A stretch of 53,100 nt of DNA from an uncultured Oscillospiraceae bacterium (GTDB lineage: Bacteria; Bacillota; Clostridia; Oscillospirales; QAMX01). Shown here piece by piece: positions 12,890 to 30,249 of this stretch. The number at the start of each line of letters is the position of its first letter. Positions within the stretch are counted from its first letter, which is position 1. The DNA lies in contig CAYTOF010000003.1 of NCBI GenBank assembly GCA_964439435.1, forward strand, positions 1 through 53,100, given 5' to 3'. The notes under the pieces are model-generated. The model saw nothing but the letters and a program-made list of their open reading frames with translations. It did not search any database and was not told where the DNA came from. Both the position numbers and the translations under genes were made by a program.

Positions 12890-12898
12890 AAACGCACC

Positions 12899-14452
12899 TT
12901 ACAATTTAAAAAACATACCGTCATCATGTTCGACTAATACGTTACATACGCTGTCAGGAGAAATTTTTATCTTTCCTGATGTTGTCCATTCACCGATAAC
13001 TTTCTTTAGAAGCGTAAAAAATATGTTTGGATACATTCCCCCTGCTTTATATCTTAAATGTTTAGGGAACAATTTTATAAATCCGTCAGAATATTTTTTT
13101 ACCTGCCGTTGATACAATGGTATAATATCTTCGAAAATGCCGGGCAGCGTTTCTTTGAATCGGTTATACTGTGCGATGGGAAAAAATGGTACGTTAAGTT
13201 CAGCTTTATCTCCGATATTTTTTAAGAAGCCGTTTTTAATTGCTGTTGCCGCAAATTCTTTTTCATTGTCGCTTATATTGTCGCTTTTTATTATTTTTTC
13301 ACAAACTGCGAGTTCATCTTTACGCATTGAATTTATATTTTCAAACGGCGGAAAAACAAATACAATATGACCAATTGTGTGATGTTCCGTATCTATGTAA
13401 TTTCTATTGTCAAAAAAGAATACATTTTTATAATCGTCGGTTCGCGCATAAAATTCCCATTTCCAGCCGTCAAATCTTTCGGGAGTGTTTCGCAATTCGA
13501 ATTTATTATTATACCTTTCATTAAAATGGTCAAAAGCCATAATACAGAACAAACACATTAATTCGTCATAGCTTTTATTTGCCGTGAATATATCAAGTTC
13601 CAATGTCTTTACCGTAAATTTATTTGCTCTTTCCAACAAAATATCGGATATGGATTTTATACATTCTTTTGATTGGATATAATCGTACTTGTTGATTGAT
13701 TCGTCATAAATAATAATGTCGGATAAAATTGTATTTTGCGTAGGTTGTATTATTGTGCCGCATTTTAACAACATTTCGATTCTGTCCTCGATATAATACG
13801 CGGGAACACCTAATATTTTTGATAAATCCTCAACGCTTCTCGCTTCTTTATATACTTGCCAAAGTATGTTTTGCGACAGCGCGTCATTAAGATACATTCG
13901 CGGGATTCCGGCGTATGAACCGTCTGTGTATAGATTCAATTTTATCGGCTTCAATGCTGTTTCCTGCATAATATCAAACTCCTTTTTCAATTTTTCCCGC
14001 CCGATTGACAAGCGGTATTTTATTGTGCCCTCCGGGATATTCAACCGTTCGGCTATTTCTCGGCTTGTCAGATTGTCATAATAGTGCATTACGATAATGT
14101 CGCGATAGCAAGCGGATAACTGCGTTATGTTTTTTCTTAATGTATCGTAAAGTTCGTTTTGCTCAAAATCATATTCGTCATTATACGGTTGTTCGTCAAG
14201 ATCGTCTGACGAATACATCTCCCGTTCTCTGCCTCTGTTTCGGCTAAAAGATTTCAGGGTATTATTGGCTACACCCCACAACCATGCCTCGAATTTATCT
14301 ATATCTTTTATTGCCGTTATGGTTTTCGCCGCTTGCAATAAAATCTCTTGCGCCAATTCTTCCGCTTCCTCACGTGAGTATGTGCGGCGTTGCGAAAATG
14401 AAAAGATTTTATTTATATATTTTACAAGAATTTCGTTATCCATTTTTTCCAC
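12899..14452 (-). CDS. ECF (sigma-24-type) sigma factor with a C-terminal extension of about 350 aa
   Basis: region 2 (AEELAQEI..FEAWLWGVANN) and region 4 (LTSREIAERLNIPEGTIKYRL) in the first ~160 aa of 517 aa. Confidence 0.88.
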   Translation of the reverse strand: MEKMDNEILVKYINKIFSFSQRRTYSREEAEELAQEILLQAAKTITAIKDIDKFEAWLWGVANNTLKSFSRNRGREREMYSSDDLDEQPYNDEYDFEQNELYDTLRKNITQLSACYRDIIVMHYYDNLTSREIAERLNIPEGTIKYRLSIGREKLKKEFDIMQETALKPIKLNLYTDGSYAGIPRMYLNDALSQNILWQVYKEARSVEDLSKILGVPAYYIEDRIEMLLKCGTIIQPTQNTILSDIIIYDESINKYDYIQSKECIKSISDILLERANKFTVKTLELDIFTANKSYDELMCLFCIMAFDHFNERYNNKFELRNTPERFDGWKWEFYARTDDYKNVFFFDNRNYIDTEHHTIGHIVFVFPPFENINSMRKDELAVCEKIIKSDNISDNEKEFAATAIKNGFLKNIGDKAELNVPFFPIAQYNRFKETLPGIFEDIIPLYQRQVKKYSDGFIKLFPKHLRYKAGGMYPNIFFTLLKKVIGEWTTSGKIKISPDSVCNVLVEHDDGMFFKL

Positions 14453-14534
14453 CTCATATATATCAGTGAGAGTTTTTCCGTTTTAGTTGGGATTTTTTCG
14501 ATTATTCAAAACAAATTTTGTCTTGTTATCAAAT

Positions 14535-14563
14535 ATTTTACCATAAAATAATTAGGGAATCTA
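14535..14563 (-). promoter_or_regulatory. sigma-A-like promoter of the ECF-ABC operon
   Basis: minus strand TAGATT-17-TAAAAT with TG extension. Confidence 0.45.
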
Positions 14564-14647
14564 AAAATAATTTTGTTTGGTTCTCTCCGTTGTTCCTGCG
14601 ACGCCGAACACCTCCGGCTGCGCGGACTTGCTTTGTGCCTTTGGCAT
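14561..14647 (-). CDS. 28-aa small ORF MPKAQSKSAQPEVFGVAGTTERTKQNYF (peptide or truncated gene)
   Basis: strong RBS GGAGGTGAATCT-ATG; below the 60-aa ORF-track cutoff. Confidence 0.4.
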   Translation of the reverse strand: MPKAQSKSAQPEVFGVAGTTERTKQNYF

Positions 14648-14764
14648 AGATTCACCTCCATAAAAATAGCCGCAGCTCTCACTGCGGCATATAAAAAAGC
14701 GCCTACCTTTCGATAGACGCTTCTTCGCGGATTTACTGTTAATGTTTGTTATCGGTCGGATAAT

Positions 14765-16084
14765 TTACTCAGAAAGCAACCACTCGACCACATTCTGCGA
14801 CTGAATGCCGTCGTAGGAGGTGTCCAGTCCCGTGTCGAGCGAGAGCACCAGCTTCTCGTAATTGTCGCGGATTTTTTGGAGAGGAGCCAGCTCGCGGCGT
14901 CGGACATCCTCGCTTGTCATGGACTCCGTCACCTGAATATACAGCTTCCTTTCCGCATCGGTGGCGATGAAATCGACCTCGACATTGTCAATCTTTCCGA
15001 TTGCCACATCGTAGCCACGGCGCAGCAGCTCGAAATAAACAACGTTCTCCAGCGCGTGACCGCTGTCTCTGTTGCGAAAGCCCAGCAGGTAATTTCGAAG
15101 CCCGATATCTACAATATAATACTTGCCGAGTGTGCGCAGGTATTCTTTGCCCTTGATATCAAATCGCTTAATGTCGTAGAAGAAATAGCTCTCCAACAGG
15201 GCGTTCACATACGCCTGAACCGTGTGGGCGCTGGGTGAGCCCTTCCGTTTACCGTCCTCAAGCAGCCCCTCGTTTACAAGGGTGTTACCGATAGACGCAA
15301 TCGAGACATTGCTTCCGATGTTGTCCGCGAGGAACAGGATGATTTTGCGAAGCAGTACAGGGTCAGTGATGCGCTGCTGACCTCGACGTTTCTCCCGCTC
15401 TAAAATATCCCGGATGACGACGGTGGAATAAATACCATCAAGCAGGATCAGCGCCTTCTCTTGATTCAGTCCTACGTCAGCTATGCCCGGCATCCCGCCA
15501 AAGCGGAGATAGGAGTCAAAGGCTTCTCTTAGGTCGTAGCGTTCGCCGCTCTTGTCATAGACCTGTTTTCTTATGCCACCTAAGGCGCTCTGCGTTTCCC
15601 TCACTTCGAAGTCATGGAAATACAGAAACTCATTAAAAGACAGAGGCAGCATTTTGATCTCTATGCTTCTGCCGGAGAGGTAGGTCGAATACTCCGACGA
15701 AAGCAGATACGCGTTGGAGCCGGTGATATAGATATCGCAGTTGAAATCAACGCGGAAGGAATTCACCGCCTCCTCCCAGGCGTCGATTCTCTGTAGCTCA
15801 TCGAAAAACAGATACATACGTTTTCCGAGCAGAACGCGCTGCTTCACATAGTTGTAAAGCATATCCGAGGTCATGTCCTTGAAATCGTGAGACTCGAAAT
15901 TCATCTCAACGATCTGATCCTCGGAGATGCCGCTTTCCTTCAGGTGCAGCATCATCAGCTTCAGCAGGCTGGACTTTCCGCAACGGCGGATGCCCGTCAC
16001 CACCTTGACAGGTTCCGTGTCCTGAAAAGCGATGAGTTTATTCAAATACAATTCTCGTTTTTTAAGTTCATGTGATTCTATCAT
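14765..16084 (-). CDS. AAA_14 ATPase with C-terminal DUF4143 (PD-(D/E)xK-like) domain
   Basis: GIRRCGKS Walker A, FFDELQ Walker B, ITGSNA, LENVVY, EVDFIA..IQVT. Confidence 0.9.
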   Translation of the reverse strand: MIESHELKKRELYLNKLIAFQDTEPVKVVTGIRRCGKSSLLKLMMLHLKESGISEDQIVEMNFESHDFKDMTSDMLYNYVKQRVLLGKRMYLFFDELQRIDAWEEAVNSFRVDFNCDIYITGSNAYLLSSEYSTYLSGRSIEIKMLPLSFNEFLYFHDFEVRETQSALGGIRKQVYDKSGERYDLREAFDSYLRFGGMPGIADVGLNQEKALILLDGIYSTVVIRDILEREKRRGQQRITDPVLLRKIILFLADNIGSNVSIASIGNTLVNEGLLEDGKRKGSPSAHTVQAYVNALLESYFFYDIKRFDIKGKEYLRTLGKYYIVDIGLRNYLLGFRNRDSGHALENVVYFELLRRGYDVAIGKIDNVEVDFIATDAERKLYIQVTESMTSEDVRRRELAPLQKIRDNYEKLVLSLDTGLDTSYDGIQSQNVVEWLLSE

Positions 16085-16133
16085 TGATCACACCTCCAGC
16101 GAGCTTAGCATAGCATAAACTCATGCAAAAATC

Positions 16134-16161
16134 AAGTTTTTGCACTCAACTGCAAAAACTT
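16134..16161. promoter_or_regulatory. 11-bp inverted repeat next to the AAA gene promoter
   Basis: aagtttttgca-ctcaac-tgcaaaaactt abutting minus-strand TTGATT-17-TATGCT. Confidence 0.55.
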
Positions 16162-16462
16162 CTCACTTTCGACAAGCTTTGTAGCATACGCTTTTCATAT
16201 AAGACCCTCAGCTATATCGTGATTGACAAGTGAACGGAAATGATTCGATATAGTCATGGACGCGTTATACAGCGTCGCCAGCAGACATATCCCCTCATGC
16301 AAAATCCACACCTTTGTATAGAAATGCCTAAACAACGTCGAGTTTTCAACATTAGGTGCGGATATTTTTATGAGATAATGCAATAATATTCCTACTACAC
16401 AAAATAGTAGGCAGCGAAAAATGGATGTAGAGCACATGCGAGAGACTTACCCCCAACTCACA

Positions 16463-16642
16463 TCATACATCGGCCCATGCATCAGGAGCAAGGTAAACGC
16501 CGTGAGAAACGCGCTCATATTCTTTTGCAGCCACATATTTTGAAAGTATGTACTTTGAAATACCCGCTCCCAGTACGGCCGCCGTAGTTAAAACACCGCC
16601 ACTTGCTTCTGTCATCTGATCAAGTAGTTCAAACTGGCTCAT
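16463..16642 (-). pseudogene. truncated AbiEi (type IV TA antitoxin) N-terminal fragment
   Basis: MSQFELLDQMTEASGGVLTTAAVLGAGISK..YERVSHGVYLAPDAWAD then stop; no AbiEii toxin ORF follows. Confidence 0.7.
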
Positions 16643-16661
16643 GTGCATCATCCCCTTTTAC

Positions 16662-16685
16662 GCTAATATAATAATCTATATTAGC
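16662..16685. promoter_or_regulatory. inverted-repeat operator upstream of the abiEi remnant
   Basis: gctaatata-N6-tatattagc overlapping TTTACT-17-TATTAT (minus strand); AbiEi proteins autoregulate via promoter IRs. Confidence 0.55.
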
Positions 16686-17012
16686 ACAATAGTAAACATG
16701 ATTTTCCATCAAACTCGCTACCAGTATTTCTTATCTTTTGTGTGATTGCATTTGGTGTTTACAACTTCAGCAGAAGTACCCTTTACAAAACTCAGTCCCA
16801 ATTTGGGATTGAGTTTTGTCATAGTGCTGCTTGGCTTGTTTGCACCCCCGCTGTCAAGTTTCAGCCACCGTATTCATGGGCTTGCCGTCCATAAGGCAAA
16901 CACCGCATATCTGCTTGGCATCGAGGCAGAAAACTACAAGGAAAACGAGCATAAGCGAGATGAAAAATAAGCGCCGGCATGGTGCGCAGCTGCATGATGA
17001 AATCATGTGTTC

Positions 17013-17124
17013 AAGGGGCATGGGGATTCCCCATCAAGCAAATTTGCAAAAAATGACGGCAACCGGCATAGCTTGCAAATTGCACGAGTGGGCGCCCACG
17101 TGCATAGCTTGCGCATTCTTATAC
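17013..17124 (+). other. candidate oriT-like region
   Basis: hairpin atggggattccccat, hairpin tgcacgagtgggcgcccacgtgca followed by TAGCTTGC, direct repeat gcatagcttgc at 17066 and 17102. Confidence 0.3.
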
Positions 17125-17668
17125 TAATAAAATGTTATCATCAATTCTATCTTACCAAATCCTACCGATTATCTGCCTTGCATGGCTTTTCGGTGGGATT
17201 TCGTCTTTGTTGGTGGTAACAATATGCTCGAATACAGTACAACATAAATTGTATCGCAAAAAAACTACGATAGGCATCTCCACAGCCCTCAGCCGCTTTT
17301 GCTGGATTGATGACGAACGAATGACCCTAAGTTTTAGTGAGTGTCATTCAGGGCAGCGCGGCGGAGCTCGAAAGCAGATAGATCGTCAGGACGGAATACT
17401 GTCATCTCTTAATCCAATCTCTATACTCTCATTTTACGTTTCCGCAAGCCAGAGGCAAAAGGCTTCTAAACGCTGAATCACTTCCAAAGCCCATCCCTCC
17501 AAAAACGGCATAGTTTGCTTGTTTCACAGAACTTCTCCAGCAAGAGAATTATAACTTTTGAAAAATTCTTTCTGCATCGGTTGTAAAAATGACGTTTTCG
17601 CTGGCTACTACTTGAGGGACAATTTTATTGCAGCCCAAAAACAGCAAATATATTTTCCTCCGGTTCAT

Positions 17669-17721
17669 CCGAACTAATGACGAGGGGTGAACGTTTTGTT
17701 CACCCCTCGTCATTAGTTCGG
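17669..17721. repeat. perfect 24-bp inverted repeat with a 5-nt loop
   Basis: ccgaactaatgacgaggggtgaac-gtttt-gttcacccctcgtcattagttcgg. Confidence 0.95.
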
Positions 17722-17725
17722 GTAG

Positions 17726-17917
17726 GTGCAAACGCTCAACATCGAGGGAAATCCTTGGTTTGTATCCGTTGATGTTTGCGCCGCTCTCGGCGTTTCCCGC
17801 ACTGCTGTAAGACAATTGGACGAAGACGAAAAGGGTGTGCATTCAACGCACACCCTTGGTGGAACCCAGAAGATTGCCGTTGTAAATGAATGTAGTGCAC
17901 CGTCCCACAGAGCATAG
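17726..17917 (+). pseudogene. Bro-N (phage antirepressor-type) domain fragment
   Basis: IEGNPWFVSVDVCAALG..LDEDEKGVHSTHTLGGTQKIAVVNE is the Bro-N pattern; truncated at 63 aa. Confidence 0.75.
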
Positions 17918-18012
17918 TTTAGCAAATTGGGGCGGTAAGTAAAATCCAAAGCGATTGGCACTTATGTTTCATCCCTTGTTGGTGCCTTTCGCAGAAAGGA
18001 ATGCTCTTTTGT

Positions 18013-18255
18013 ATGACCAACAATACCCCCACATACGCGCCTATCGACCTTTGCGCCTGTTATGATTATCTTCCCTACCCGCCGGAGGAGTTCGCGGAGG
18101 AATGCCGTATTTACTGGCACAATCAGAATCCGTTCCGCGGAACGATTCAGCGCCGTATCGGCAATACCTGGTTTACCATCGAAACCGAATGTGTGGGAAG
18201 CGAAAAGCTGACCGATAAGGTCAAGCGGCTCATGTCCTCTGATAAAAGTTTGTAG
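18013..18255 (+). CDS. transposon-encoded TnpW-family protein
   Basis: RRIGNTWFTIETECVGSEKLTDKVKRL; directly upstream of the recombinase; RBS gaaagga. Confidence 0.7.
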   Translation: MTNNTPTYAPIDLCACYDYLPYPPEEFAEECRIYWHNQNPFRGTIQRRIGNTWFTIETECVGSEKLTDKVKRLMSSDKSL

Positions 18256-18353
18256 AGAGGGGGCTTCCATTCATGACAAATACAAAAAATTATGTTAATA
18301 TACAACCATGCACACCGATTCTGTCAGCTGACCCAACTGAAAAGGAGGATACT

Positions 18354-20021
18354 ATGTTGGATCAGCAGAAAATTACCATCATCTATTGTCGCCTGTCCGT
18401 GGAGGACATCAAAGAGGACTCCAAGGGTGGCAAAGCTGACGAATCAAATTCAATACAGAATCAAAAAGAGTATTTAACCCGATATGCAAGAGAGCAGGGA
18501 TACACTAATCTGAAAATACTGGTGGACGACGGCTATACCGGAACAAACTTCAATCGTCCCGGCGTACAGGAGGGATGCGAGCTTGTAAAGCAAGGACTTG
18601 TGGGATGCTGGCTGTGCAAAGACCTTTCCCGTTTTGGACGTGACTATCTGACCGTTGGGCAGTACACGGACATCATCTTCCCCAGCTACGATGTACGATT
18701 TATCGCCGTCAATGACGGGGTGGACAGTGAGCGCGGCGATGGCGAGGGTATGGCTGCAATCCGCAATCTGTTCAACGAATGGTACCCGCGGGATACCAGC
18801 AAGAAAGTCCGTGTCAGCCTCCGTCAGCGTGGCACCAGCGGCAAGCACATGGGCAAGCCGCCCTACGGATACCGCTGCGACTCAGAGGACAAAGAGTTCT
18901 GGGCACTGGACGAGGAAGCTGCCCCGGTGGTCAAGTACATCTTCGACCTCAGTATTGACGGAAAAGGGCCGGAACAGATTGCCCGGATTTTGGAACAGGA
19001 GCAGGTGTTGACCGCCAAAGCCCTGTATGCCAAACAGAAAGGCAAGCCTCTCCCGGAAAGACCGTACCATTGGATCGGACAGTCTGTGGTGGGTATTCTG
19101 GAACGGCAGGAGTACACCGGCTGTACTTGCAACTTCAAAACCTACTCCAAGTCCTACAAGCTGAAAAAGCGGATTCCAAATGCCCCGGTGGATATGTATA
19201 TCATCCCCGACACGCAGGACGCAATCGTACCGCAGGCTCAATGGGACAGAGTACAAGAGCTGCGAAAAAACAAACGCCGCCCCGCTAAAGCGGAACGGCA
19301 GGGTTTTTTCTCCGGGCTTCTGTTCTGTGCCGATTGCGGCGGCAAGCTCCATTTTGCCACCAGCAAGAGCTTTGAGGGCAGACAAGACCGCTATGTATGC
19401 AAGCATTACAAGAGCAACCGCGGTACTTGCACCGCCCACTACATCCGGGAGGATGTGCTGCGGGATATGGTACTGGAACGGATACAGGCAGTGAATGAAT
19501 ATATCCGTGACGATGTCGAGGGCTTTCAGGAGGAATGGCTGCGTTGCCGCAGAACTGACCGGGAGAAGAATATCCGTGAGGACAAAAAGCGGCTGGAGCA
19601 GGCGAAGAAACGCCTTGCAGACTTGGATGTGCTCATACCCCGGCTCTATGAGGATTCCGTCCTTGGTAATCTGAGCATGGACAGATACAAGAAGCTGTCC
19701 GCAGATTATGAAGCAGAACAGGAACGGTTAAAACTCGAAATTGAAGTAACGGAAGAATGGGTAGAACAGCAGGAGGAAATGAACGATAATCTGGACGTGT
19801 TCATTTCCTTGACCCGTAAGTATGTGGATGCGGAGGAACTGACACAGACGATTGTAAATGAGTATATCAAGAAAATCGTGGTGTTCGCCCCCGACAAGTC
19901 CAGCGGAAAGCGGCAGCAGAAAATCCAGATTTATTTCAACTTCGTGGATGAGCTTGATATTCCTGTCATTTCTGACCCGGTGATTACAGAAACAACCTAT
20001 GGACGCAGAAAAACGGCGTGA
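18354..20021 (+). CDS. large serine recombinase (resolvase + recombinase + Zn ribbon + coiled coil, DUF4368-type C-terminus)
   Basis: IYCRLS catalytic Ser, DDGYTG, KDLSRFGR, PYGY, CADCG..C..C; RBS aaggagg before ATG at 18354. Confidence 0.95.
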   Translation: MLDQQKITIIYCRLSVEDIKEDSKGGKADESNSIQNQKEYLTRYAREQGYTNLKILVDDGYTGTNFNRPGVQEGCELVKQGLVGCWLCKDLSRFGRDYLTVGQYTDIIFPSYDVRFIAVNDGVDSERGDGEGMAAIRNLFNEWYPRDTSKKVRVSLRQRGTSGKHMGKPPYGYRCDSEDKEFWALDEEAAPVVKYIFDLSIDGKGPEQIARILEQEQVLTAKALYAKQKGKPLPERPYHWIGQSVVGILERQEYTGCTCNFKTYSKSYKLKKRIPNAPVDMYIIPDTQDAIVPQAQWDRVQELRKNKRRPAKAERQGFFSGLLFCADCGGKLHFATSKSFEGRQDRYVCKHYKSNRGTCTAHYIREDVLRDMVLERIQAVNEYIRDDVEGFQEEWLRCRRTDREKNIREDKKRLEQAKKRLADLDVLIPRLYEDSVLGNLSMDRYKKLSADYEAEQERLKLEIEVTEEWVEQQEEMNDNLDVFISLTRKYVDAEELTQTIVNEYIKKIVVFAPDKSSGKRQQKIQIYFNFVDELDIPVISDPVITETTYGRRKTA

Positions 20022-20180: not shown

Positions 20181-21677
20181 ATGGACGGCTATATTTTGGC
20201 TCTTGATCAAGGTACCACAAGCTCAAGAGCCCATATAATTGACAGCTCGGGGCAAATTATCGCCTCTGCCCAGCACCCCTTTAAACAGATTTATCCTGCT
20301 GCCGGATGGGTGGAGCATGACCCCTTTGACATCCTCGAAACCCAGCTTCGCGCTGCGGGAGAGGCCTTTGCCCAAAGCGATCTCTCCCCCTCCGATATCG
20401 CCGCCATCGGTATTGCTAATCAGCGAGAGACGACCATTGTGTGGGATAAGCATACGGGCAAGCCCGTATGCAATGCCATTGTCTGGCAGTGCCGCAGGAC
20501 AGCGGAGATCTGCAATGAGCTGATTGCGAGTGGGCTTTCCGAATATGTGCAGGAGAAGACAGGCCTTGTCATAGATGCGTATTTTTCTGCTACAAAGCTC
20601 AAATGGATTCTTGACAATGTGAAGGGAGCAAGAGAGGCGGCGGATAAAGGGCAGCTCCTCTTTGGAACTGTTGAGACATGGTTGATTTGGAATCTCACAG
20701 GCGGTGCCGAGCATGTGAGCGACTGTGCAAACGCCTCTCGAACAATGCTCTTTGACATCGATAAACTCTGCTGGGATGATGAGCTTTTAAAAGCTATTGA
20801 TATCCCAGACTCTGTTTTACCTCGCCCTGTCCCCTGTATGGACTCCATGGGTAAAATTGCCAAGGGCATAAAGCACATGGAATCCTTGGAGGGCATTCCC
20901 ATCTGTGCCGCGGCGGGAGACCAACAGGCAGCCCTCTTTGGTCAGTGCTGTTTTGAACCGGGTCTTGCCAAAAACACATACGGCACAGGTTGTTTTCTCT
21001 TGGCAAACTGCGGAGATGAGCGCCCCCGTTCAAGACATGGACTGGTGACAAGCATTGCCTGGAATACAAATACACAAAAAATATACGCCCTGGAGGGCAG
21101 CGCTTTCAACACAGGCTCTGCCATACAGTGGTTGCGGGATGAACTCGGACTTATAGAATCTGCCAAGGAGTGTGACAAACTTGCCGAAACGGTAGAAAAC
21201 AGCGGCGGTGCTTTTTTCGTACCGGCCTTTACGGGACTCGGAGCACCCTATTGGGATATGGATGCAAGAGGCCTTCTGTGCGGTCTGACTAGGGGTACGA
21301 CCAGGGCCCATGTCGCAAGGGCAGTGCTTGAGAGCATAGCCTTTCAAACGGCTGATTTGTGTGCTGCCATGGAACTGGATCTCGGATTTTGCTTGCGAGA
21401 GTTGCGCGTTGACGGCGGCGCAAGTGCCAGTGATGTGTTGATGGCCTTTCAAGCCGACATCCTGGGTATGAACATAAACAGACCCCAAAACACAGAATCC
21501 ACGGTTTTAGGGGCCGCTTTTATGGCAGGACTTGCCGTCGGGCTTTGGAGTGATACCGCCCGGCTGTCAACAATGCGCAAAACACAGAGAGTTTTTCACC
21601 CTGCCATGTCAAGCGAGCGCAGAGATGGGCTTTATAAAGGATGGAAACAAGCCATAGCACGGACAAGGTCGTTTTAG
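20181..21677 (+). CDS. glpK: glycerol kinase
   Basis: LALDQGTTSSRA, NQRETT, GDQQAAL, KNTYGTGCF; 498 aa. Confidence 0.93.
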   Translation: MDGYILALDQGTTSSRAHIIDSSGQIIASAQHPFKQIYPAAGWVEHDPFDILETQLRAAGEAFAQSDLSPSDIAAIGIANQRETTIVWDKHTGKPVCNAIVWQCRRTAEICNELIASGLSEYVQEKTGLVIDAYFSATKLKWILDNVKGAREAADKGQLLFGTVETWLIWNLTGGAEHVSDCANASRTMLFDIDKLCWDDELLKAIDIPDSVLPRPVPCMDSMGKIAKGIKHMESLEGIPICAAAGDQQAALFGQCCFEPGLAKNTYGTGCFLLANCGDERPRSRHGLVTSIAWNTNTQKIYALEGSAFNTGSAIQWLRDELGLIESAKECDKLAETVENSGGAFFVPAFTGLGAPYWDMDARGLLCGLTRGTTRAHVARAVLESIAFQTADLCAAMELDLGFCLRELRVDGGASASDVLMAFQADILGMNINRPQNTESTVLGAAFMAGLAVGLWSDTARLSTMRKTQRVFHPAMSSERRDGLYKGWKQAIARTRSF

Positions 21678-22524
21678 AGTGTGCTTATATGCCTTGAAAA
21701 CTCCGCTTTGGCACGTTTGAGGTCAGCCGTAGAGACAATCCACTCTTTGCGCTCATTTCCGATGCGCCCTAGCTTTTCCATCTTGGCATTGCCCATTGGG
21801 TGATAGGAAAAAAACTTTACATTTTTACAGTGTGGCAGCCTTTTGTAAAGTTTACGGTATTCACCAAAATGCACCGCAGCTCTATATTTGCCTTGAGACT
21901 GTCCGCAAGCAGCAGGTTTTCTATTATCCTCTCATTTGAAACCCCGGTGTACTCAATATGCCTTTCCTTGTCGCTGTCTTTAAAATCCCATAGCAGCGTA
22001 TCTGTATATTGACACAGTGTGGGCAGAAAGGCCTTGTCGAAATACCCGCAAGTCTCCACCGCTGTATTCAGATTGTTTTCCTTTGCCGCTTTTAAAAGGG
22101 CGATTGTCTCCTTTGGGTATGCCATCGGCTCGCCGCCGGAGATTGTGAGCCCTCCCTCTTTGCCATAAAAAGCGACATCGCGCAGCACTTCGTAGATAAT
22201 CTCATCAATGCCCATCTCTTGGCTGACGGATTCAAGTGCCTTTGTCGGACACACACCCACACAGTCTTCACTCATGAGACATCTATCTCTGTCAAAGACA
22301 TGCTTTCCTGTTGTAAACTGATGTGCGCCGTTTTTGCATATGTTGCAGTTGCCGCACCGAATACATTTGGACGGTGAGTAATATATCTCATTTTCTTTTT
22401 TGTGTGTCTCGGGATTGTGGCACCATTTACATCGCAGCGGGCAGCCCTTTATAAAAACCGTGGTTCTTATTCCCGGCCCATCATGCATACAAAACCGCTG
22501 TATCTCCACCACAGGTAATTTCAT
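21674..22524 (-). pseudogene. glycyl-radical enzyme activating enzyme (radical SAM with ferredoxin insert), frameshifted near 21850
   Basis: HDGPGIRT, CPLRCKWCHNPE, SGGEP; frame stops at 21817 while the normal C-terminus (LYKRLPHCKNVKFFSYHPMGNAKMEKLG) lies in the 21674..21874 frame. Confidence 0.85.
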
Positions 22525-24644
22525 CGCCGCATCCCCTTTGAGCAGCGCTGTATGATCATATCCTGCCACTCTTTGCTGAGGGTCACAAACCGCGCGTTCC
22601 AACCGGAAACCCGCACCGAAAGCGTGGGGTATTTTTCGGGGTGCTCCTGCGCGTCTTTTAAAACCCTTTCATCTATCACATCAAGCTGCATGAAAAATCC
22701 GCCAAGCTCAATGAAGCCTTCAATCAAATGGATGATGGCCGTTGTGCCCTCTTCGTCGTAAACACTTGTCGGGAACAACTCCACATCCAATGCGGCACCG
22801 GACACCGTTTTCCTCAAATCTGCCTTGCAGTAGGATTTTATCATGGCAGTGGCGCCAAGCAAATCCGTGCCGGGTGTGGGCGAAAAATTGCCCGAGAGTA
22901 CCTCGCCTTTTTTACGCCCGTGGGGAGATGCGAGACGCTTTGAGGCCCAATCGATTTGTCTGCCAAATGTGCTGATGCCTGCGGGAAACAACAGAGGGCC
23001 ACCCTTGCTCAACTCACGGCATATCTTGGCAAACTCCTCCACTATGTGCACCGCAATCTCGTCGACATCGTCGCTGTCATTTCCAAAATAAACATAGTGG
23101 TTCAATATGTATTGTCTGAGAGGTTCATGGCCTTCAAAGTTATCTTGCAAAATCTCCATGAATGCGGAAAGCGATAACTTCTTTTCTTTAAAAACAACAT
23201 TCTTTATGGCGTAGAGAGCATTGACAGCATCGGGTAATCCTCCGATATGAGGTGAGATCATATTGTATTTGGGCCCTCCTCCATAATAGGACAGGCCCGA
23301 CTCAATGCACCCCATCGTGAACATTGAAACAACGGAGCAAGGAGTTGCCTCCGCTCTTTCTTGCCAGCGCTTTGGATCAAAGCGCTGGACACTGTAAATC
23401 TCTTCAACTGTTTTGCGTAAATCCTCTATAAATGCTTGATAGAGGTCCTCATATGTCTCAAAAGGCAGTTTTTCATCATATGCCTTCAGTGTCTTCTCCT
23501 GCAACAGCTTTAGGGCGTCGAAGGGGATGTAGTTGAAAAATGTTTTCCCCGGGATTTGCACTTCCCAACAACCGTCATTGGCAAAGGTACGTGCTTCCTC
23601 TATCTCATATCCAAAATCCGTCAGGGCATCTAAAATCAAGTCCTCATTGTATACCGCCACTATGCCGCCGCCATGCCTTATGACTTCGGCCATGCGTTTT
23701 AGCAGCAACGGGTCGGATTTTTTGTTGATGCGGACCGTTATCGGGAAATCGCTTATGCCGAGCTCTTCGATTATATCCAAAACAAGATATGTCACTTCAT
23801 TTGTGATGTCCTCTCCGTTTTCATCGACACCCGAAAGGACGATATTTTGATAGTGCTGCGCATCGCCGCTGATACTTCTCTCTCCGCGAATCCACTCGCA
23901 ACCTTTTATGAAGAAGTGTGCCAGAAATTCCCGCGCTTGCTCCACTATCACGGTACCTTTTTCCAAATCCCTTTTCAGATACGGCCCGAGCATTGCGTCG
24001 ATTCGGCCGATACCCGACCAATTGCCGCAGAGCCTTGTAAAGGCAAAGGTAAACCAAAGGCTTTGGACAGCTTCAAAGAAATTGCTTGCGGGATAATAGG
24101 GCACATTTCGCAGGTTTTTTAATATATCACCGTGTTTCTCATCCTCGCTAAGCGCCTCAATATATCTGCTGTGCCAAATCTTCAGGCAGGAAATACAGTG
24201 CAACATGCTGTGAAGGTTGGCAACTTTTTCTTTCTCTGTCTGAACGGCCAAGGACCTGTTGATGCGCTTTTCTATGTCTAATAAGCCATACTTCAATACC
24301 CTGTCAAAGCCCAATGTCACATGGCTCACGCTGTTTATAAAAAGGTTGCCGTTGTGGGTAGCCGGCACCATATGTCTTATCGCAGCGCCCAAAGTGGCCG
24401 CACCCGATAAAAGCTCGTTTTCACAGATGCGTATCGGTGCTTTTTGCGCTATTTCCAATATAGCCGCATTGTATTTGTCCGGCAGACTCATTTGATCAAA
24501 ATCTGCCAGATGATCCAAGGACACAGCTTGATTTTTCCATGTGTCCTGTCCGTATTTAAAGTGCAGTGAATCGTATGCAAAAGCTCTTGTTTTTTCAGAG
24601 AGGCGCACAGGACGGTTTTCTTTATAAGCTGTATAAAACTCCAT
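22521..24644 (-). CDS. glycyl radical enzyme (PFL-like family), substrate unknown
   Basis: Cys loop ANDGCWEV and Gly loop YPTLSVRVSGWNARF; 707 aa; ATGA overlap with the activase. Confidence 0.9.
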   Translation of the reverse strand: MEFYTAYKENRPVRLSEKTRAFAYDSLHFKYGQDTWKNQAVSLDHLADFDQMSLPDKYNAAILEIAQKAPIRICENELLSGAATLGAAIRHMVPATHNGNLFINSVSHVTLGFDRVLKYGLLDIEKRINRSLAVQTEKEKVANLHSMLHCISCLKIWHSRYIEALSEDEKHGDILKNLRNVPYYPASNFFEAVQSLWFTFAFTRLCGNWSGIGRIDAMLGPYLKRDLEKGTVIVEQAREFLAHFFIKGCEWIRGERSISGDAQHYQNIVLSGVDENGEDITNEVTYLVLDIIEELGISDFPITVRINKKSDPLLLKRMAEVIRHGGGIVAVYNEDLILDALTDFGYEIEEARTFANDGCWEVQIPGKTFFNYIPFDALKLLQEKTLKAYDEKLPFETYEDLYQAFIEDLRKTVEEIYSVQRFDPKRWQERAEATPCSVVSMFTMGCIESGLSYYGGGPKYNMISPHIGGLPDAVNALYAIKNVVFKEKKLSLSAFMEILQDNFEGHEPLRQYILNHYVYFGNDSDDVDEIAVHIVEEFAKICRELSKGGPLLFPAGISTFGRQIDWASKRLASPHGRKKGEVLSGNFSPTPGTDLLGATAMIKSYCKADLRKTVSGAALDVELFPTSVYDEEGTTAIIHLIEGFIELGGFFMQLDVIDERVLKDAQEHPEKYPTLSVRVSGWNARFVTLSKEWQDMIIQRCSKGMRR

Positions 24645-24683
24645 TCACATCACCTGTTTAAATATACTGCATGGTATAATTTA

Positions 24684-24712
24684 ATTGTATCAAATATATA
24701 TTGCATTTTCAA
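24684..24712 (-). promoter_or_regulatory. sigma-A promoter of the GRE operon
   Basis: minus strand TTGAAA-17-TACAAT. Confidence 0.55.
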
Positions 24713-24767
24713 TTGACAAAGCCTTTGTATACCTGTAAAATTCTATTACGGCATTTTCTCTCAGGCG

Positions 24768-24811
24768 AGACAAATCGCCCCTTGACTTAAAAGTCAAAGA
24801 GCGATTTGTCT
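24768..24811. terminator. hairpin downstream of tRNA-Leu(CAG)
   Basis: agacaaatcgc..ttgact-taaa-agtcaa..gcgatttgtct. Confidence 0.6.
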
Positions 24812-24826
24812 GCGGCGACTCGCCGC

Positions 24827-24913
24827 TGGTGCGGATAAGAGGACTTGAACCTCCACCGTATTACTACGACTAGAACCTGAATCTAGCGCGTCTGCCAATT
24901 CCGCCATATCCGC
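24827..24913 (-). tRNA. tRNA-Leu (anticodon CAG)
   Basis: GCGGATATGGCGGAATTGGCAGACGCGCTAGATTCAGGTTCTAG..GGTTCAAGTCC..ACCA; long variable arm. Confidence 0.97.
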
Positions 24914-25038: not shown

Positions 25039-25971
25039 ATGTCAAACTCATATGCAAATTCACTTGGATTGATTGGCAACACACCAATGGTTGAGCTTTC
25101 CTTTTTAGCTCAAAAATACAACCTCAAATCAAAGCTGTTTGGCAAGCTCGAATCTGTCAACCTCACAGGCAGCGTAAAAGACCGCATTGCCAAAGCGATG
25201 ATAGAAGATGCCGAAGCAAATGGCCTGTTGAAACCTGGCTCCGTCATCATAGAGCCCACCAGCGGCAACACCGGCATCGGCCTTGCGGCTGTGGCCACTG
25301 TCAAGGGATATAGAACCATCCTCACCATGCCGGACACCATGAGCATAGAGCGCAGAAACTTGCTCCGAGCGTATGGTGCAGAACTGGTTCTGACCGAGGG
25401 CGCGCTCGGCATGAAGGGCGCTATGGCCAAAGCCAAGGAACTATCAGAACAGATTCCGGACAGCTTTATCCCCGGTCAGTTTGACAACCCCGCAAACCCC
25501 GCCATACATCTGGCCACCACCGGCCCGGAGATTTGGGAGCAGACGGAGGGCAAAGTCGACATCTTTGTATCAGGTGTCGGCACGGGCGGAACGCTCACAG
25601 GTGCTGGTGAGTTTTTGAGATCGAAGAACAAGGACATATATATAGTGGCGGTTGAACCCTCTGATTCGCCCGTGCTCTCAGGCGGCAGTGGCGGCCCCCA
25701 CAAGATACAGGGGCTTGGTGCCGGTTTTGTCCCCGCTGTTTTGAACACCGAGATATACAACGAGATCGTCCGCGTCCAAAACCAAGATGCCTTCGACATG
25801 GGCAGAACCGTTGCTCAGACAGAGGGCTTGCTCGTGGGCATATCCTCAGGAGCAGCAGTGTGGGCGGCGCTTGAACTCGGGCTGCGCCCTGAAAATGCTG
25901 GTAAGAGCATTGTCGTCATCATTCCCGATGCGGGCGACCGATATCTCTCAACACCCATGTTTTCACAGTGA
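25039..25971 (+). CDS. cysK: cysteine synthase A
   Basis: IGNTPMV, SVKDRIA (PLP lysine), [20 protein letters not shown]. Confidence 0.96.
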
Positions 25972-25999
25972 TATAATAACCGATGAAAAGGATGTGTCC

Positions 26000-26728
26000 A
26001 TGTCCCACTGGCTTTCTCGAACCGAACTTATATACGGCACAAAAGGATTGGATATTCTACAAAATGCCCGCATAGCTGTGTTTGGCATCGGCGGTGTGGG
26101 TGGTTATGCCGTAGAGGCTCTCGCTCGCAGCGGTATCGGCACTCTCGATTTAGTCGACAGTGACACTGTCTGTGAGTCCAATCTCAACAGGCAGATACAT
26201 GCACTCCACAGCACCCTTGGCAAATACAAGGTCGATGTGGCAAAGGAGCGTATTTTAGACATCAATCCCCGAGCGATAGTGAACACCCACAAGCTCTTTT
26301 TTTCGGATTCAAATGCCTCGATGTTTAATTTTGCAAAGTATAACTATGTTGTCGACGCCATAGACACAATTTCATCTAAAATGACCCTTATTTTGTGCGC
26401 ACAGGATACACACACCCCTATTATCAGCTCTATGGGAGCGGGAAACAAAAAGCAAGCTCTTTCATTTAAAATATCGGACATATACTCCACCGACACCTGC
26501 CCCTTGGCACGTGTGATGCGCAAAGAACTGCGGGCGCGCGGTGTAATAGCTCTAAAAGTGCTCTGCTCAAGTGAGACCCCCGCCACATGCCTCGGTGAAA
26601 CCAACTGCCCTGATTCGTGCAAGCAAAGGGCGCCGGGCAGCAATGCCTTTGTGCCGGCTTCGGCAGGTCTTATCATAGCCGGAGAGGTTGTCAATGACCT
26701 TGTGCGAGGAGCTGCTCTGTCAGACTGA
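26000..26728 (+). CDS. tcdA: tRNA threonylcarbamoyladenosine dehydratase (ThiF family)
   Basis: start MSHWLSRTEL; GIGGVGG, SNLNRQ, CPLARVMRKEL. Confidence 0.85.
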   Translation: MSHWLSRTELIYGTKGLDILQNARIAVFGIGGVGGYAVEALARSGIGTLDLVDSDTVCESNLNRQIHALHSTLGKYKVDVAKERILDINPRAIVNTHKLFFSDSNASMFNFAKYNYVVDAIDTISSKMTLILCAQDTHTPIISSMGAGNKKQALSFKISDIYSTDTCPLARVMRKELRARGVIALKVLCSSETPATCLGETNCPDSCKQRAPGSNAFVPASAGLIIAGEVVNDLVRGAALSD

Positions 26729-26825: not shown

Positions 26826-27959
26826 TCATCCAAAGAGTGCAAGTAATATACCCGCAACAACTGCCGAACCTATGACACCTGCAACATTGGAGCCCATTGC
26901 GTGCATCAACAGATGGTTTGAGGGATTGGCTTTTTGGCCTTCAACCTGGGACACCCTGGCGGCCATGGGCACTGCGGAAACACCGGCTGAGCCAATCAAA
27001 GGGTTGATTTTTCCCTTTGTGAGCCAGCACAGCAGCTTGCCAAGAAGCAGGCCGCCAATGGTGCTGAACATAAATGCCGTAAGCCCGAGCCCTATGATCA
27101 TGAGTGTTTGCGGGCGCAGAAAATCCTGTGCATTGGCGGTGGCACCCACTGTGATTCCAAGAAATATCGTGACTATATTTATCAGGGCATTTTGCGCTGT
27201 CTCTGACAAGCGCTCAACAACACCGGATTCCTTGAAGAGGTTGCCAAGCATCAGCATCCCTATAAGAGGTGCAACGGCAGGCAACAAGAGAACTGCCAAT
27301 ATGGTGACGACTATCGGGAAGATAATTTTTTCTGTTTTTGTTACGACACGAAGCTGTGTCATCTTGATTTCGCGTTCTTTTTTTGTTGTCAAAGCGCGCA
27401 TTATCGGGGGCTGAATCAGGGGAATCAGCGCCATATATGAATATGCGGCAATGGCGATGGCAGGCAAGATCGTCGGTGCAAGCTTTGAGGCAAGGTATAT
27501 TGCGGTGGGCCCGTCTGCTCCGCCGATTATTCCTATGGACGCGGCTTCACCGGGATTAAATCCCAGCGCAATGGCGATGATGAAAGCTATGCTGATGCCG
27601 AGCTGTGCACCTGCTCCCATCAACAAGCTGATAGGTCTGGCTATCAGCGGACCGAAGTCCGTCATCGCACCGATGCCGAGGAAAATCAAAGAAGGATATA
27701 TTCCAAGTTTGACTCCTTGATAAAGATAATAGAGCAATCCTCCGGGGTCACCATCTTTGCCCGCATCCATAAGGCCTGTCAAAGGTAAGTTTGCAAGCAA
27801 TATTCCAAAGGCAATGGGCAAGAGCAGCAACGGCTCAAACTTTTTGACGATGGCAAGATAGATCAGCACACAAGCTACAAGAATCATAACTCCGTGTTGC
27901 CATGTCAAATTGGCAAAACCCGAGACTTCCCATATTTTTTGTATGGCTTCACTAAGCAT
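26826..27959 (-). CDS. oadB: Na+-translocating decarboxylase beta subunit
   Basis: FEPLLLLPIAFG, IGIIGGADGPT, GSAGVSAVPMAAR. Confidence 0.95.
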   Translation of the reverse strand: MLSEAIQKIWEVSGFANLTWQHGVMILVACVLIYLAIVKKFEPLLLLPIAFGILLANLPLTGLMDAGKDGDPGGLLYYLYQGVKLGIYPSLIFLGIGAMTDFGPLIARPISLLMGAGAQLGISIAFIIAIALGFNPGEAASIGIIGGADGPTAIYLASKLAPTILPAIAIAAYSYMALIPLIQPPIMRALTTKKEREIKMTQLRVVTKTEKIIFPIVVTILAVLLLPAVAPLIGMLMLGNLFKESGVVERLSETAQNALINIVTIFLGITVGATANAQDFLRPQTLMIIGLGLTAFMFSTIGGLLLGKLLCWLTKGKINPLIGSAGVSAVPMAARVSQVEGQKANPSNHLLMHAMGSNVAGVIGSAVVAGILLALFG

Positions 27960-27973
27960 TTATGTGTCTCTCC

Positions 27974-28372
27974 TTACTGCATTGAAATCAACGCATCACC
28001 GGTGGACACAGACGCCCCCTTTGTGACATGAACCTGCGCGACAACGCCGTCAGCAGGTGCGGCTATTTCATTTTCCATTTTCATAGCTTCCAGGATAAGT
28101 AAAACCTCTCCCATTTTCACGCTTGTTCCCGGGGTTACTCTTATGTCCAGTATTGTGCCGGGCATCGGCGATGTGATGGCATCCTCGCTTGGCTGTGCAG
28201 CGGGTGCCGCAGGGGCGGGAGCAGCTGCTTGGGGTGCGGGTGCCGGAGCTGCGGGGGCTGTCACTGGAGCAGGAGCGGCCACTGCCACTTCTGTTGTGTT
28301 CACGATATTTGCTTGCCCGCGTTCTACTTCGACTTCATATTCTTTGTCGTTGATTCTGACAACATATATCAT
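27974..28372 (-). CDS. biotin carboxyl carrier subunit of the decarboxylase
   Basis: Ala/Pro linker and EAMKMENEI biotinylation motif. Confidence 0.95.
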   Translation of the reverse strand: MIYVVRINDKEYEVEVERGQANIVNTTEVAVAAPAPVTAPAAPAPAPQAAAPAPAAPAAQPSEDAITSPMPGTILDIRVTPGTSVKMGEVLLILEAMKMENEIAAPADGVVAQVHVTKGASVSTGDALISMQ

Positions 28373-28401
28373 ATAAATTCCTCCGATTATCTTGTCTGCG
28401 T

Positions 28402-28728
28402 CTATGCTTTTTGTAACAATTTTATTGACTTAAAACACAACTGTGACAAAGGGATGCCGGATTCATCGCTTATTATGGCCATGATCATGGCCGCTGTGGG
28501 CTCATCCACATCTTTGAGCTTCAGTTGTCCTGTCGACAGTTCATTTACAGCAGTTGCCGGCGTCGCTTTTATCTCATTTTTAGCATCTGCCTTGCCCTTC
28601 TCTTTCTCTCCTCCTGCTTTTCCCAGCACTTTGGAAAACAGTATAAGGAAAATGTACAACACGGCAAGAAGCAGCATGACGCCACTTATGCAGTACAGCG
28701 CAATCAAAAAACTTTCAGGCAATGTCAT
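28402..28728 (-). CDS. OadG-like (gamma/delta) membrane subunit
   Basis: single N-terminal TM helix, AAMIMAIIS motif, operon position. Confidence 0.8.
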   Translation of the reverse strand: MTLPESFLIALYCISGVMLLLAVLYIFLILFSKVLGKAGGEKEKGKADAKNEIKATPATAVNELSTGQLKLKDVDEPTAAMIMAIISDESGIPLSQLCFKSIKLLQKA

Positions 28729-30119
28729 AGGGCTGATTCCTCCGGTTTTTTAACTATTGTATATGTGACCGTTCTGCTCTCTCGCTCTTCTCTCTCTTGG
28801 AAAAACTTTTCGGCGATTTGAGGGAATGCGATATAGGAGAGCACGTCCTCATCACTGCGGGCAAGCTCTCCGAGCTCTGCCTTAGTCTTTTCAAACTCAG
28901 GCGCCATTGTCTCGGCAAAGCGACCTGTGATGGGTTTTTCATCGCCCAAGACCTTGGTCAACAAATCCTTGTCTATCTCGCCCGGCGCTTGTCCGTACTC
29001 ACCTCTGAGATATGCCCTGACCTCTTTTGAGACACTCTTGTAGCGCTCACCGGAAAGGACATTGGACACAGCCTGCACACCAACCATCTGGCTCATGGGT
29101 GTGACCAGGGGTGGATATCCCAAATTTTTTCTGACAAGGGGCGTCTCTTCCAAAACGTCTTCCAGCTTATCGCTGGCGTTTTGAGCTTTCAGTTGAGCTA
29201 TGAGATTTGAAAGCATGCCGCCCGGCACTTGATACACAAGGGCGTCGGTCTCTGTGCCCATCACAAAGGGGTCCAAGTTGCCGGACTCTATGTATTTGGC
29301 TCTGATTGGTCTGAAATAGTCATTGATCTGCTTCAGGACAGCTTCGTCCAAGCCGGAATCATAGCCCATTTGTTTCAGGGCAAAGTGCAGCGACTCCGTT
29401 GCGGGTTGAGATGTTCCGCCGGAGAAGGTGGATATCGCTGTGTCAATACCGTCACAGCCTGCTTCGGCTGCCTTGATATAGGTCATCGGACCAAGTCCTG
29501 TTGTGGAGTGTGTGTGTAGGTAGACCGGCAATTTGATTGTGCTCTTCAGAGCTTTTATCAGATCATAAGCCTCTTGCGGTCCCATGATGCCTGCCATGTC
29601 CTTGATGCAGACGGAGTGAACTCCCATGGATTCCAGCTGTTTTCCCATGGCGGTGTACTTTTCAATATTGTGTATGGGGCTTAGAGTGTAGCATATACAA
29701 CCTTGAGCATGCACGCCTTGTTTCAAGGTCTCATCCACGGCAACTTCGATGTTTCTAAAATCGTTCAAAGCGTCAAAGATGCGGAAAATATCCATGCCGT
29801 TCATGACTGCGTGGGAAACAAATTTTCTGACAACATCGTCCGGATAGTGCTTATAGCCCAGTATGTTTTGTCCGCGTAAAAGCATTTGAAGCTTTGTGTT
29901 TTTCACGCCGGCTCTGATTTTGCGCAGTCTTTCCCATGGATCTTCACTCAAATAGCGAAGACAAGAGTCGAAAGTCGCTCCTCCCCAGCATTCCAATGAG
30001 TGATAGCCGGCATTGTCGAGCATTTCCAATGCCCCTTCAAAATCAGAAAACGGCATCCGCGTGGCAATGAGTGATTGGTTGGCATCACGCAAAACCGTTT
30101 CTGTAAAATTCACCTTCAT
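28725..30119 (-). CDS. oadA: oxaloacetate decarboxylase alpha / pyruvate carboxylase B-like carboxyltransferase
   Basis: ETVLRDANQSL, WGGATFD, CIKDMAG, HTH, YPPLVTPMSQ; start 30119 with RBS aaggag. Confidence 0.9.
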   Translation of the reverse strand: MKVNFTETVLRDANQSLIATRMPFSDFEGALEMLDNAGYHSLECWGGATFDSCLRYLSEDPWERLRKIRAGVKNTKLQMLLRGQNILGYKHYPDDVVRKFVSHAVMNGMDIFRIFDALNDFRNIEVAVDETLKQGVHAQGCICYTLSPIHNIEKYTAMGKQLESMGVHSVCIKDMAGIMGPQEAYDLIKALKSTIKLPVYLHTHSTTGLGPMTYIKAAEAGCDGIDTAISTFSGGTSQPATESLHFALKQMGYDSGLDEAVLKQINDYFRPIRAKYIESGNLDPFVMGTETDALVYQVPGGMLSNLIAQLKAQNASDKLEDVLEETPLVRKNLGYPPLVTPMSQMVGVQAVSNVLSGERYKSVSKEVRAYLRGEYGQAPGEIDKDLLTKVLGDEKPITGRFAETMAPEFEKTKAELGELARSDEDVLSYIAFPQIAEKFFQEREERESRTVTYTIVKKPEESAL

Positions 30120-30166
30120 AAATACGACTTCTCCTTTGTATGCATAATCTTTCTTTGCTTGTAGAA

Positions 30167-30249
30167 TGGTGCGGGTAACAGGATTTGAACCTGCATGGTT
30201 TCCCACCGGAACCTAAATCCGGCGCGTCTGCCAATTCCGCCATACCCGC
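30167..30249 (-). tRNA. tRNA-Leu (anticodon TAG)
   Basis: GCGGGTATGGCGGAATTGGCAGACGCGCCGGATTTAGGTTCCGG..GGTTCAAATCC..ACCA. Confidence 0.97.

Follow-up and report, generated by a model that had tools for sequence, protein, structure and literature searches.

Glycyl radical enzymes (GREs) of gut microorganisms carry out hard anaerobic chemistry, including routes to trimethylamine, hydrogen sulfide, p-cresol and skatole. The characterised classes are given in a review of June 2026, in which whole clades are still unvalidated, and several of its generalisations serve as points of reference here: the C-x-E motif is kept in all characterised eliminases and isomerases, where its Glu is hydrogen-bonded to the substrate hydroxyl; a His of glycerol dehydratase (GD) protonates the leaving hydroxyl; and the loop around the radical Gly reads RVSGYAV in pyruvate formate lyase (PFL), RVAGFTQ in HPAD and RVSG[Y/F]SA in BSS (PMC13450708). 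The locus considered here lies in a stretch of 53,100 nucleotides from an uncultured Oscillospiraceae bacterium (assembly GCA_964439435.1, contig CAYTOF010000003.1, positions 1 to 53,100), hereafter the window, and the product of the gene at 22521..24644 on its minus strand is a GRE of the PFL-like superfamily. The favoured reading, at a probability of about 0.6, is that this is an intact, compact GRE of the PFL2 type, probably performing eliminase or isomerase chemistry on a small polar substrate, and that the cassette to which it belongs is degenerate at this locus.

A full-length enzyme apart from the characterised GREs

The preliminary description of this DNA had reported a 707-aa open reading frame (ORF) with the loops NDGCWEVQ and RVSGWN, and translation confirms all three, on the minus strand (Table 1); the reading frame is intact from its ATG start, 5 nt ahead of which lies a Shine-Dalgarno sequence, AGGTGA (24655-24650). 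The product matches the Pfam families PFL-like (PF02901, 5.8e-88) and Gly_radical (PF01228, 4.3e-21) and has the features by which the superfamily is recognised, i.e. a barrel domain, a C-terminal glycine-radical domain, an RVxG loop and an opposing catalytic Cys. The structure prediction suggested in the preliminary description was run with AlphaFold2 on a 66-sequence alignment and returned a confident GRE fold (pLDDT 94.6, pTM 0.93), with template modelling (TM) scores of 0.80-0.87 against solved GREs and of 0.85-0.87 against 1,2-propanediol dehydratase (PD), GD, CutC and HypD. Cys359 is predicted to be the site of the thiyl radical, Glu361 the general base of the C-x-E motif and Gly681 the site of the glycyl radical.

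None of the NCBIfam equivalog cut-offs for HypD, HpsG, HpfG, PflD-type enzymes, CutC, IAD, HPAD and PFL was reached, the scores being 99-275 bits against cut-offs of 994-1150 (HypD 275/1100, HpsG 249/1000, PflD-type 248/1109, CutC 240/1050, and 99/994 for the PFL model TIGR01255). The single Cys of G-C-W-E also differs from the Cys-Cys pair of PFL. The C-x-E typical of 1,2-eliminases and isomerases is present as C359-W360-E361, and the score against TIGR01774 (PFL2-3 subfamily) is 303.3 bits, below the cut-off of 678.2 for this subfamily of C-x-E eliminases. The top matches in the PDB were PD (5i2a, 251 bits), PflD (8id0), GD (1r8w), the Archaeoglobus fulgidus PFL2 (2f3o) and CutC, and in Foldseek PD, GD, CutC, HypD, HplG, PflD, YbiW and HpyG/HpzG were nearly equal at 21-24% identity. 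The aligned loops are those with which the preliminary description had compared the enzyme, with GCVE and RVAGY in PD, GD, PflD and CutC, and HplG reads GCIE. These comparisons support the conclusion that the 707-aa GRE groups with no biochemically characterised GRE. The earlier view of an uncharacterised short GRE therefore stands, with all NCBIfam cut-offs missed and only 21-24% identity to solved structures, and clustering with a characterised enzyme was looked for in NCBIfam, the PDB and Foldseek and was not found.

A compact family with two Trp residues

A search of 5.8 billion proteins yielded 119 cluster representatives of 696-736 aa and 56-72% identity, for which the only names displayed were ‘hypothetical protein’, ‘pyruvate formate lyase family protein’ and ‘pyruvate-formate lyase’. 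Among 185,579 species genomes (one genome per species) there were 529 confirmed family stretches, 80 of which were examined in detail. Nearly all of these 80 loci come from metagenome-assembled genomes of animal or human gut or of digesters, labelled Clostridia, Eubacteriales, Oscillospiraceae, Acutalibacteraceae, Lachnospiraceae or Christensenellales, with Fumia xinanensis NSJ-33 (L049) as the sole cultured isolate.

The family signature, to which the window enzyme conforms, consists of a length of about 700 aa and the motifs S.SH.T, GDAQHYQN, NDGCWE and VRVSGW[SN]ARF. Invariant in 19 family members are H108, G358, C359, W360, E361, V677, R678, S680, G681, W682 and the block G260-D-A-Q-H-Y-Q-N267. 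The window enzyme keeps 138 of the 139 columns that are invariant in the 119 relatives, the sole departure being W503F. Of the 125 columns with a conservation of 95% or more, it differs at five, and divergent members elsewhere in the family show similar values; judged by these columns, it shows no sequence decay.

Against 50%-identity representatives, HMMER scores gave about 20 clusters above 430 bits (at least 41% identity), followed by a drop to about 330 bits (34%). Within the 98 nearest non-family representatives beyond this drop, C-W-E is the commonest variant of the motif (33), Trp after the radical Gly (G-W) is found in 18 and both are found in 14 (Fisher p = 3e-5, relatedness ignored), while the position of His108 is a His in 79. 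The two Trp residues can also occur singly, and G-W is found paired with GCVE. The preliminary description had taken the pair of Trp residues as distinctive. This holds in so far as both are invariant in the family members compared; it does not hold beyond the family, given C-W-E in a third of the near neighbours (33/98) and G-W in the A. fulgidus PFL2. Because both residues occur in neighbouring clades and one of them in that archaeal protein, they are family hallmarks and not unique to the window enzyme. One 50%-identity representative of the family itself (P0124, 697 aa) reads VRVSGGNARF, with Gly in place of Trp after the radical Gly, so that the latter position is not absolutely fixed. 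Together, the two Trp residues delineate an extensive part of GRE sequence space that is still uncharacterised.

Active site and proposed chemistry

Pocket residues were assigned by HMMER sequence alignment to GD. In this alignment, His164, Tyr339, Cys433, Glu435 and Gly763 of GD correspond to His108, Tyr265, Cys359, Glu361 and Gly681 of the window enzyme. By contrast, His281/Ser282 correspond to Ser210/Gly211, Tyr640 to Ser558, and Asp447 to Tyr372 (Asn371 in the alignment to PD), so that of the GD set His164, Ser282, Tyr339, Asp447 and Tyr640 only the equivalents of His164 and Tyr339 are kept. The segments that line the GD pocket contain a series of family-specific invariant residues, namely W209, D261, Q263, H264, W360, F370, Y372, F560, R562, Q563 and W566, which would point to a pocket of another shape, rich in aromatic side chains and in part charged, and so to another substrate.

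On this basis, the following mechanism can be proposed. An activase would place the radical on Gly681, from which it would be relayed to Cys359; the Cys359 thiyl would take a hydrogen from a hydroxyl-bearing carbon, Glu361 would deprotonate the substrate hydroxyl, and an adjacent C-O bond, or with lower likelihood a C-N or C-S bond, would be cleaved with the help of His108, after which Cys359 would give the hydrogen back. The net reaction would be 1,2-eliminase or isomerase chemistry on a small polar compound, held in a pocket that aromatic side chains have remodelled.

The resemblance to GD and PD raises the alternative of a divergent B12-independent glycerol or 1,2-propanediol dehydratase of known chemistry and substrate. 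These two enzymes are the best sequence and fold matches, the equivalents of GD His164, Tyr339, Cys433 and Glu435 are kept, glpK adjoins the cassette in the window, a glycerol-kinase-like gene lies less than 3 kb away in the closest relative (L004), and iron-containing alcohol dehydrogenase (Fe-ADH) and GDPD families are each found twice among 122 neighbouring genes. However, the enzyme shares no more than 23-24% identity with PD and GD, CutC, HypD and HplG match equally well, the substrate-binding Asp447, Ser282 and Tyr640 of GD are replaced, and the TIGR01774 score is less than half its cut-off (303 against 678). Further, no aldehyde dehydrogenase or 1,3-propanediol dehydrogenase is conserved nearby, there are no bacterial microcompartment (BMC) genes, and an FGGY kinase is found within 10 kb in three of about 80 loci, on differing sides of the cassette, which is roughly background. 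A dehydratase acting on one of these two substrates is thus very unlikely.

Nor is there much to favour an arylacetate-type decarboxylase, or an enzyme for some other aromatic or hydrophobic compound. Aromatic residues abound in the predicted pocket segments, C-x-E is found in HPAD-type decarboxylases, and AAD (7e7l) is a significant match of the 707-aa protein; however, the IAD and HPAD models score 210 and 160 bits against 275 for HypD, the Foldseek E-values of decarboxylases are 1e-33 or weaker against 1e-46 for eliminases, decarboxylases are 800-900 aa long, and His108 is typical of dehydratases. Such an activity appears highly improbable.

A third alternative is that the two Trp residues are the sign of a remodelled active site, with a class of radical reaction new to GREs. 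In its favour, C-W-E was found in no PDB chain when solved structures were searched with the Cys-loop segment alone, a compact or C-W-E GRE is absent from the characterised enzymes of PMC13450708 and from the literature searched, C-W-E and G-W co-occur above chance in the neighbouring clades (in 14 representatives, as given above, with phylogeny ignored), the family-specific aromatic and polar invariants listed above (other than W360) fall in active-site segments, and no downstream pathway gene is conserved. Against it, the radical relay and acid-base residues of eliminases (Gly, Cys, Glu, His and Tyr) are all kept, the Trp residues occur separately, including G-W with GCVE, and the sequence demands no new chemistry. 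A new reaction class therefore seems unlikely, and the ‘new radical chemistry’ of the preliminary description is not indicated, the Cys, the C-x-E Glu and the equivalents of GD His164 and Tyr339 being in place. Because the Cys, Glu, His and Tyr of known eliminases are kept, a new substrate is likelier than a new type of reaction, and the alignments point to a known mechanism of the eliminase or isomerase type acting on a new substrate.

The cassette across the family

For the neighbourhood analysis, likewise suggested in the preliminary description, ORFs were called in the 80 related loci and clustered all against all, and the 122 nearest non-cassette neighbours were tallied by Pfam family. 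A radical-SAM activase lies directly downstream of the GRE in 48 of the 67 loci whose flank is long enough. Directly upstream, 45 of 71 loci have a divergent regulator of the AraC type (about 260 aa). Intact cassettes of this make-up, with an activase of 288-294 aa, are represented by L004 and L005. No recurrent neighbours other than these two were found in the 80 loci, whether transporter, BMC shell or pathway enzyme: the 122 other neighbours span 142 Pfam families, of which the most frequent, MatE, occurs four times, and the small remaining clusters reflect lineage-specific synteny (e.g. L066/L079/L082). No Pfam family was found for the N-terminal half of the AraC regulator, even at E <= 1. 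The AraC-GRE-activase unit is thus a self-contained cassette in unrelated surroundings. In 19 of the 67 loci, including that of F. xinanensis NSJ-33, an intact GRE is found without an adjoining activase, so that separation or loss of the activase is recurrent in the family.

Only 14 of the 41 related genomes compared carry the GRE. The best relative of the window enzyme is that of L004 at 72%, and the best match among the searched genomes of the window's own taxonomic family is 59% identical, the GREs carried by genomes of that family being 45-59% identical. This patchy presence and the distant best relative would fit horizontal transfer. The GC content of the block containing the GRE is 44-50%, like its right-hand flank, with a low-GC mobile block further to the left; an origin of the GRE in a foreign island was considered and rejected, as GC content gives no clear island signal.

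A degenerate copy in the window

In the window, the ATG of the activase overlaps the stop codon of the GRE (ATGA, 22524-22521), and the activase frame then ends early after 235 aa, matching TIGR02494 with 247 bits over profile positions 1-228 of 293 only. With the activases of L004 and L005 as queries, tblastn follows frame 1 to ...LRCILVNTVNFTK and continues in frame 3 with LYKRLPHCKNVKFFSYHPMGNAKMEKLG...STL, the frame +3 segment being 53% identical to residues 245-306 of the L004 activase. Residue 241 of the query in frame 1 and residue 252 in frame 3 map to the same bases with an offset of 1 nt, from which it follows that 34 nt are missing. The L004 DNA carries the half-sites CTTCACAAAA and CTTTATAAGA 34 nt apart, a configuration that would fit a microhomology-mediated deletion as the cause of the frameshift. 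The segment lost from the frame includes a motif that aligns with PYHxLG of the two other activases of the genome, and the truncated product is probably inactive.

With this frameshifting deletion in the assembled sequence, the window locus probably lacks a working cognate activase. It also lacks an AraC gene adjoining the GRE, in whose place there is upstream a hairpin, then tRNA-Leu(CAG) and then cysK. Since the activase is disrupted and AraC is absent, neither of which the preliminary description had noted, the locus is a degenerate copy of the cassette. Annotation of the remaining flank agrees with the preliminary description: glpK is merely convergent with the GRE and its activase, and the GRE adjoins neither a transporter gene nor a BMC gene.

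The assembly (2.19 Mb in 134 contigs, 97% complete) encodes two further compact GREs, neither of which reaches any NCBIfam cut-off. That on contig 10 (L090:1213-4337) has 718 aa, GCIE and RVSGFSAYF, with an intact activase of 323 aa, and that on contig 9 (L092:140-3057) has 663 aa, GCTE and RIGGYSEYF, with an intact activase of 309 aa. The broken activase of the window shares 32% and 41% identity with these two paralogues. The contig 10 GRE lies downstream of an ORF of the size of a ROK-like kinase. No BMC shell gene (PF00936) was matched in the whole genome, with positive controls. The enzyme of the window would thus rely in this genome on one of the two paralogous activases, or would never be activated.

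The latter case corresponds to a further alternative, in which the gene is here a functionless relic that lacks cognate activase and regulator, is never activated and is becoming a pseudogene. The deletion removes the conserved (P)YHxxG segment from the C-terminal part of the activase, AraC is absent, the two other GREs of the genome have other Gly loops, activases are largely specific for their own loop (PMC13450708), and the patchy presence of the GRE in related genomes (14/41) is consistent with frequent loss. On the other hand, the GRE is full length, with a good Shine-Dalgarno sequence, a promoter-like site and nearly all of the family's invariant residues (138/139); 19 of 67 related loci keep an intact GRE without an adjoining activase; the activase of PFL tolerates a change of Tyr to Phe after the radical Gly (PMC13450708); and the deletion rests on one assembly sequence. 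A relic is accordingly a serious possibility, although on balance a doubtful one.

Several points weigh against the favoured reading, that of an intact eliminase or isomerase within a degenerate cassette. The C-x-E motif is found in arylacetate decarboxylases too. The analogy with diol dehydratases is only partial, as Asp447, His281/Ser282 and Tyr640 of GD are replaced. Both the GRE sequence and the activase deletion of the window are carried by one assembly only. Finally, activation of the window GRE by a paralogous activase, at 32-41% identity to its own, is speculative, because known cross-reactivity is confined to near-identical Gly loops (PMC13450708).

If activation by a non-cognate activase does work in this genome, the pairing of GREs and activases would be looser than assumed, and the locus is a natural test of whether a GRE can persist once its cognate activase is gone. 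With a degenerate cassette, this locus is not the best entry point to the function of the family, for which the family's own ligand-sensing regulator offers a direct experimental route to the substrate. A broader proposition is that the compact C-W-E/G-W GREs, as a mobile sensor-enzyme-activase cassette without dedicated transporter or pathway that is present in over 500 species of Clostridia from guts and digesters, represent a reaction or substrate class new to GREs; this is put forward only tentatively, and seems improbable at present.

Surroundings of the locus

The coordinates of the features are collected in Table 1. To the left of glpK, positions 9282-20021 probably represent an integrated mobile element, with a low-GC block of 33-43%. 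A glycerol link via glpK was considered and rejected, as the frequency of FGGY kinases near family cassettes (3/~80) is about background. In L004, the FGGY/glycerol-kinase-like gene (L004:2605-3792) is found on the side of AraC, and the match of its ORF to the FGGY_N profile is short of the initial ~117 positions.

To the right, a plus-strand promoter close to consensus (TTGACA-17-TAAAAT) is found in the interval 24713-24826. It stands back to back with the promoter-like site of the GRE and is aimed at the hairpin (24768-24811) and the antisense strand of tRNA-Leu(CAG). The interval is followed at 25039-26728 (plus strand) by cysK (cysteine synthase A) and a ThiF/TcdA-like adenylyltransferase; the longest ORF of the latter overlaps cysK by 185 nt and its domain match begins at residue 77, so that its start is probably later. 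At 26826-30206 (minus strand) there is an operon of the Na+-translocating oxaloacetate/methylmalonyl-CoA decarboxylase type, with genes for the beta subunit, the biotin carrier, the gamma subunit and the alpha subunit. The longest ORF for the alpha subunit (GTG 30206) overlaps tRNA-Leu(TAG) at 30167-30249, and its true start is therefore further in.

Table 1. Positions of the GRE gene, its motifs and signals, the activase remnants and neighbouring features in the window
Feature	Position	Strand	Remark
GRE ORF	22521..24644	minus	707 aa
Promoter-like site TTGAAA-17-TACAAT with TG	24712-24684	minus	ahead of GRE start; consensus match only
Promoter-like site plus Shine-Dalgarno block	24650..24712	minus	
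Codon of His108	24321..24323	minus	equivalent of GD His164 by HMMER alignment; NSVSHVT against NGVGHVS in GD
Cys loop NDGCWEVQ, residues 356-363	23556..23579	minus	aligned with C433/E435 of GD and GCVE of PD
Gly loop RVSGWN, residues 678-683	22596..22613	minus	aligned with loop RVAGYS of GD, PD and CutC
Activase (radical-SAM GRE activase), 5' part, 235 aa	21817..22524	minus	early stop from frameshift
Activase deletion junction CTTTACAAAA	21841..21850	minus	N-F-T-K in frame 1, L-Y-K in frame 3
Out-of-frame activase 3' remnant with FFSYHPMG...LG	21674..21871	minus	end overlaps glpK stop
glpK	20181..21677	plus	convergent neighbour of GRE-activase
Hairpin	24768-24811		upstream of GRE
tRNA-Leu(CAG)	24827-24913		upstream of GRE
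Two ABC exporters	9282-12889	minus	low-GC block
517-aa protein with sigma-70 region 2 and 4 domains	12899-14452	minus	low-GC block
AAA_14/DUF4143 ATPase	14765-16084	minus	low-GC block
Large serine recombinase with DUF4368	18273-20021	plus	after low-GC block
tmRNA gene, tag peptide VNANAVSFARVV	45607-45955	minus	

Comparison with known systems

The next-nearest sequences to the family are sister clades with NDGCWE, at 31-36% identity and 280-330 bits, which often have G-W and include no characterised member; they differ from the family in being longer (737-782 aa) and in having other Gly loops (VRMGGW/GGF/GGL...) and other His loops. The A. fulgidus PFL2 (2f3o; 224 bits, 24% identity) shares the Trp after the radical Gly (RVAGWSAYF) and the Asp-Gly before the Cys (TDGCVE), but has GCVE and not GCWE, is an archaeal, tetrameric protein of 776 aa and is of debated function. 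CutC, HypD, HpyG/HpzG, HplG, YbiW/PflD, IslA/IseG and HpsG/HpfG have the fold and the C-x-E motif in common with the window enzyme, with matches about equal to those of PD and GD (TM 0.80-0.87, 20-24% identity). The His-loop position of the window enzyme reads SVSHVT, with no sign there of the Arg/Gln sulfonate triad that C-S lyases have.

A further comparison is with GD of Clostridium butyricum (1r8w/1r9d) and PD of Roseburia inulinivorans (5i2a/5i2g; 9rco-9rcq). Identity to these is 23-24%, and the window enzyme is about 80-130 aa shorter. Relative to GD, most of the shortening falls ahead of the His loop (56 aa), and about 26 aa more are missing from later loops. The Val of C-x-E and the Tyr after the radical Gly are both replaced by Trp, Asp447, Ser282 and Tyr640 of GD are substituted, and the locus is without microcompartment or aldehyde-processing genes. 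What is shared with GD and PD, however, is the ten-stranded barrel (TM 0.85-0.87), the relay from Gly to Cys, the C-x-E Glu, the equivalents of His164 and Tyr339, and an activase with a ferredoxin-like insert encoded directly downstream.

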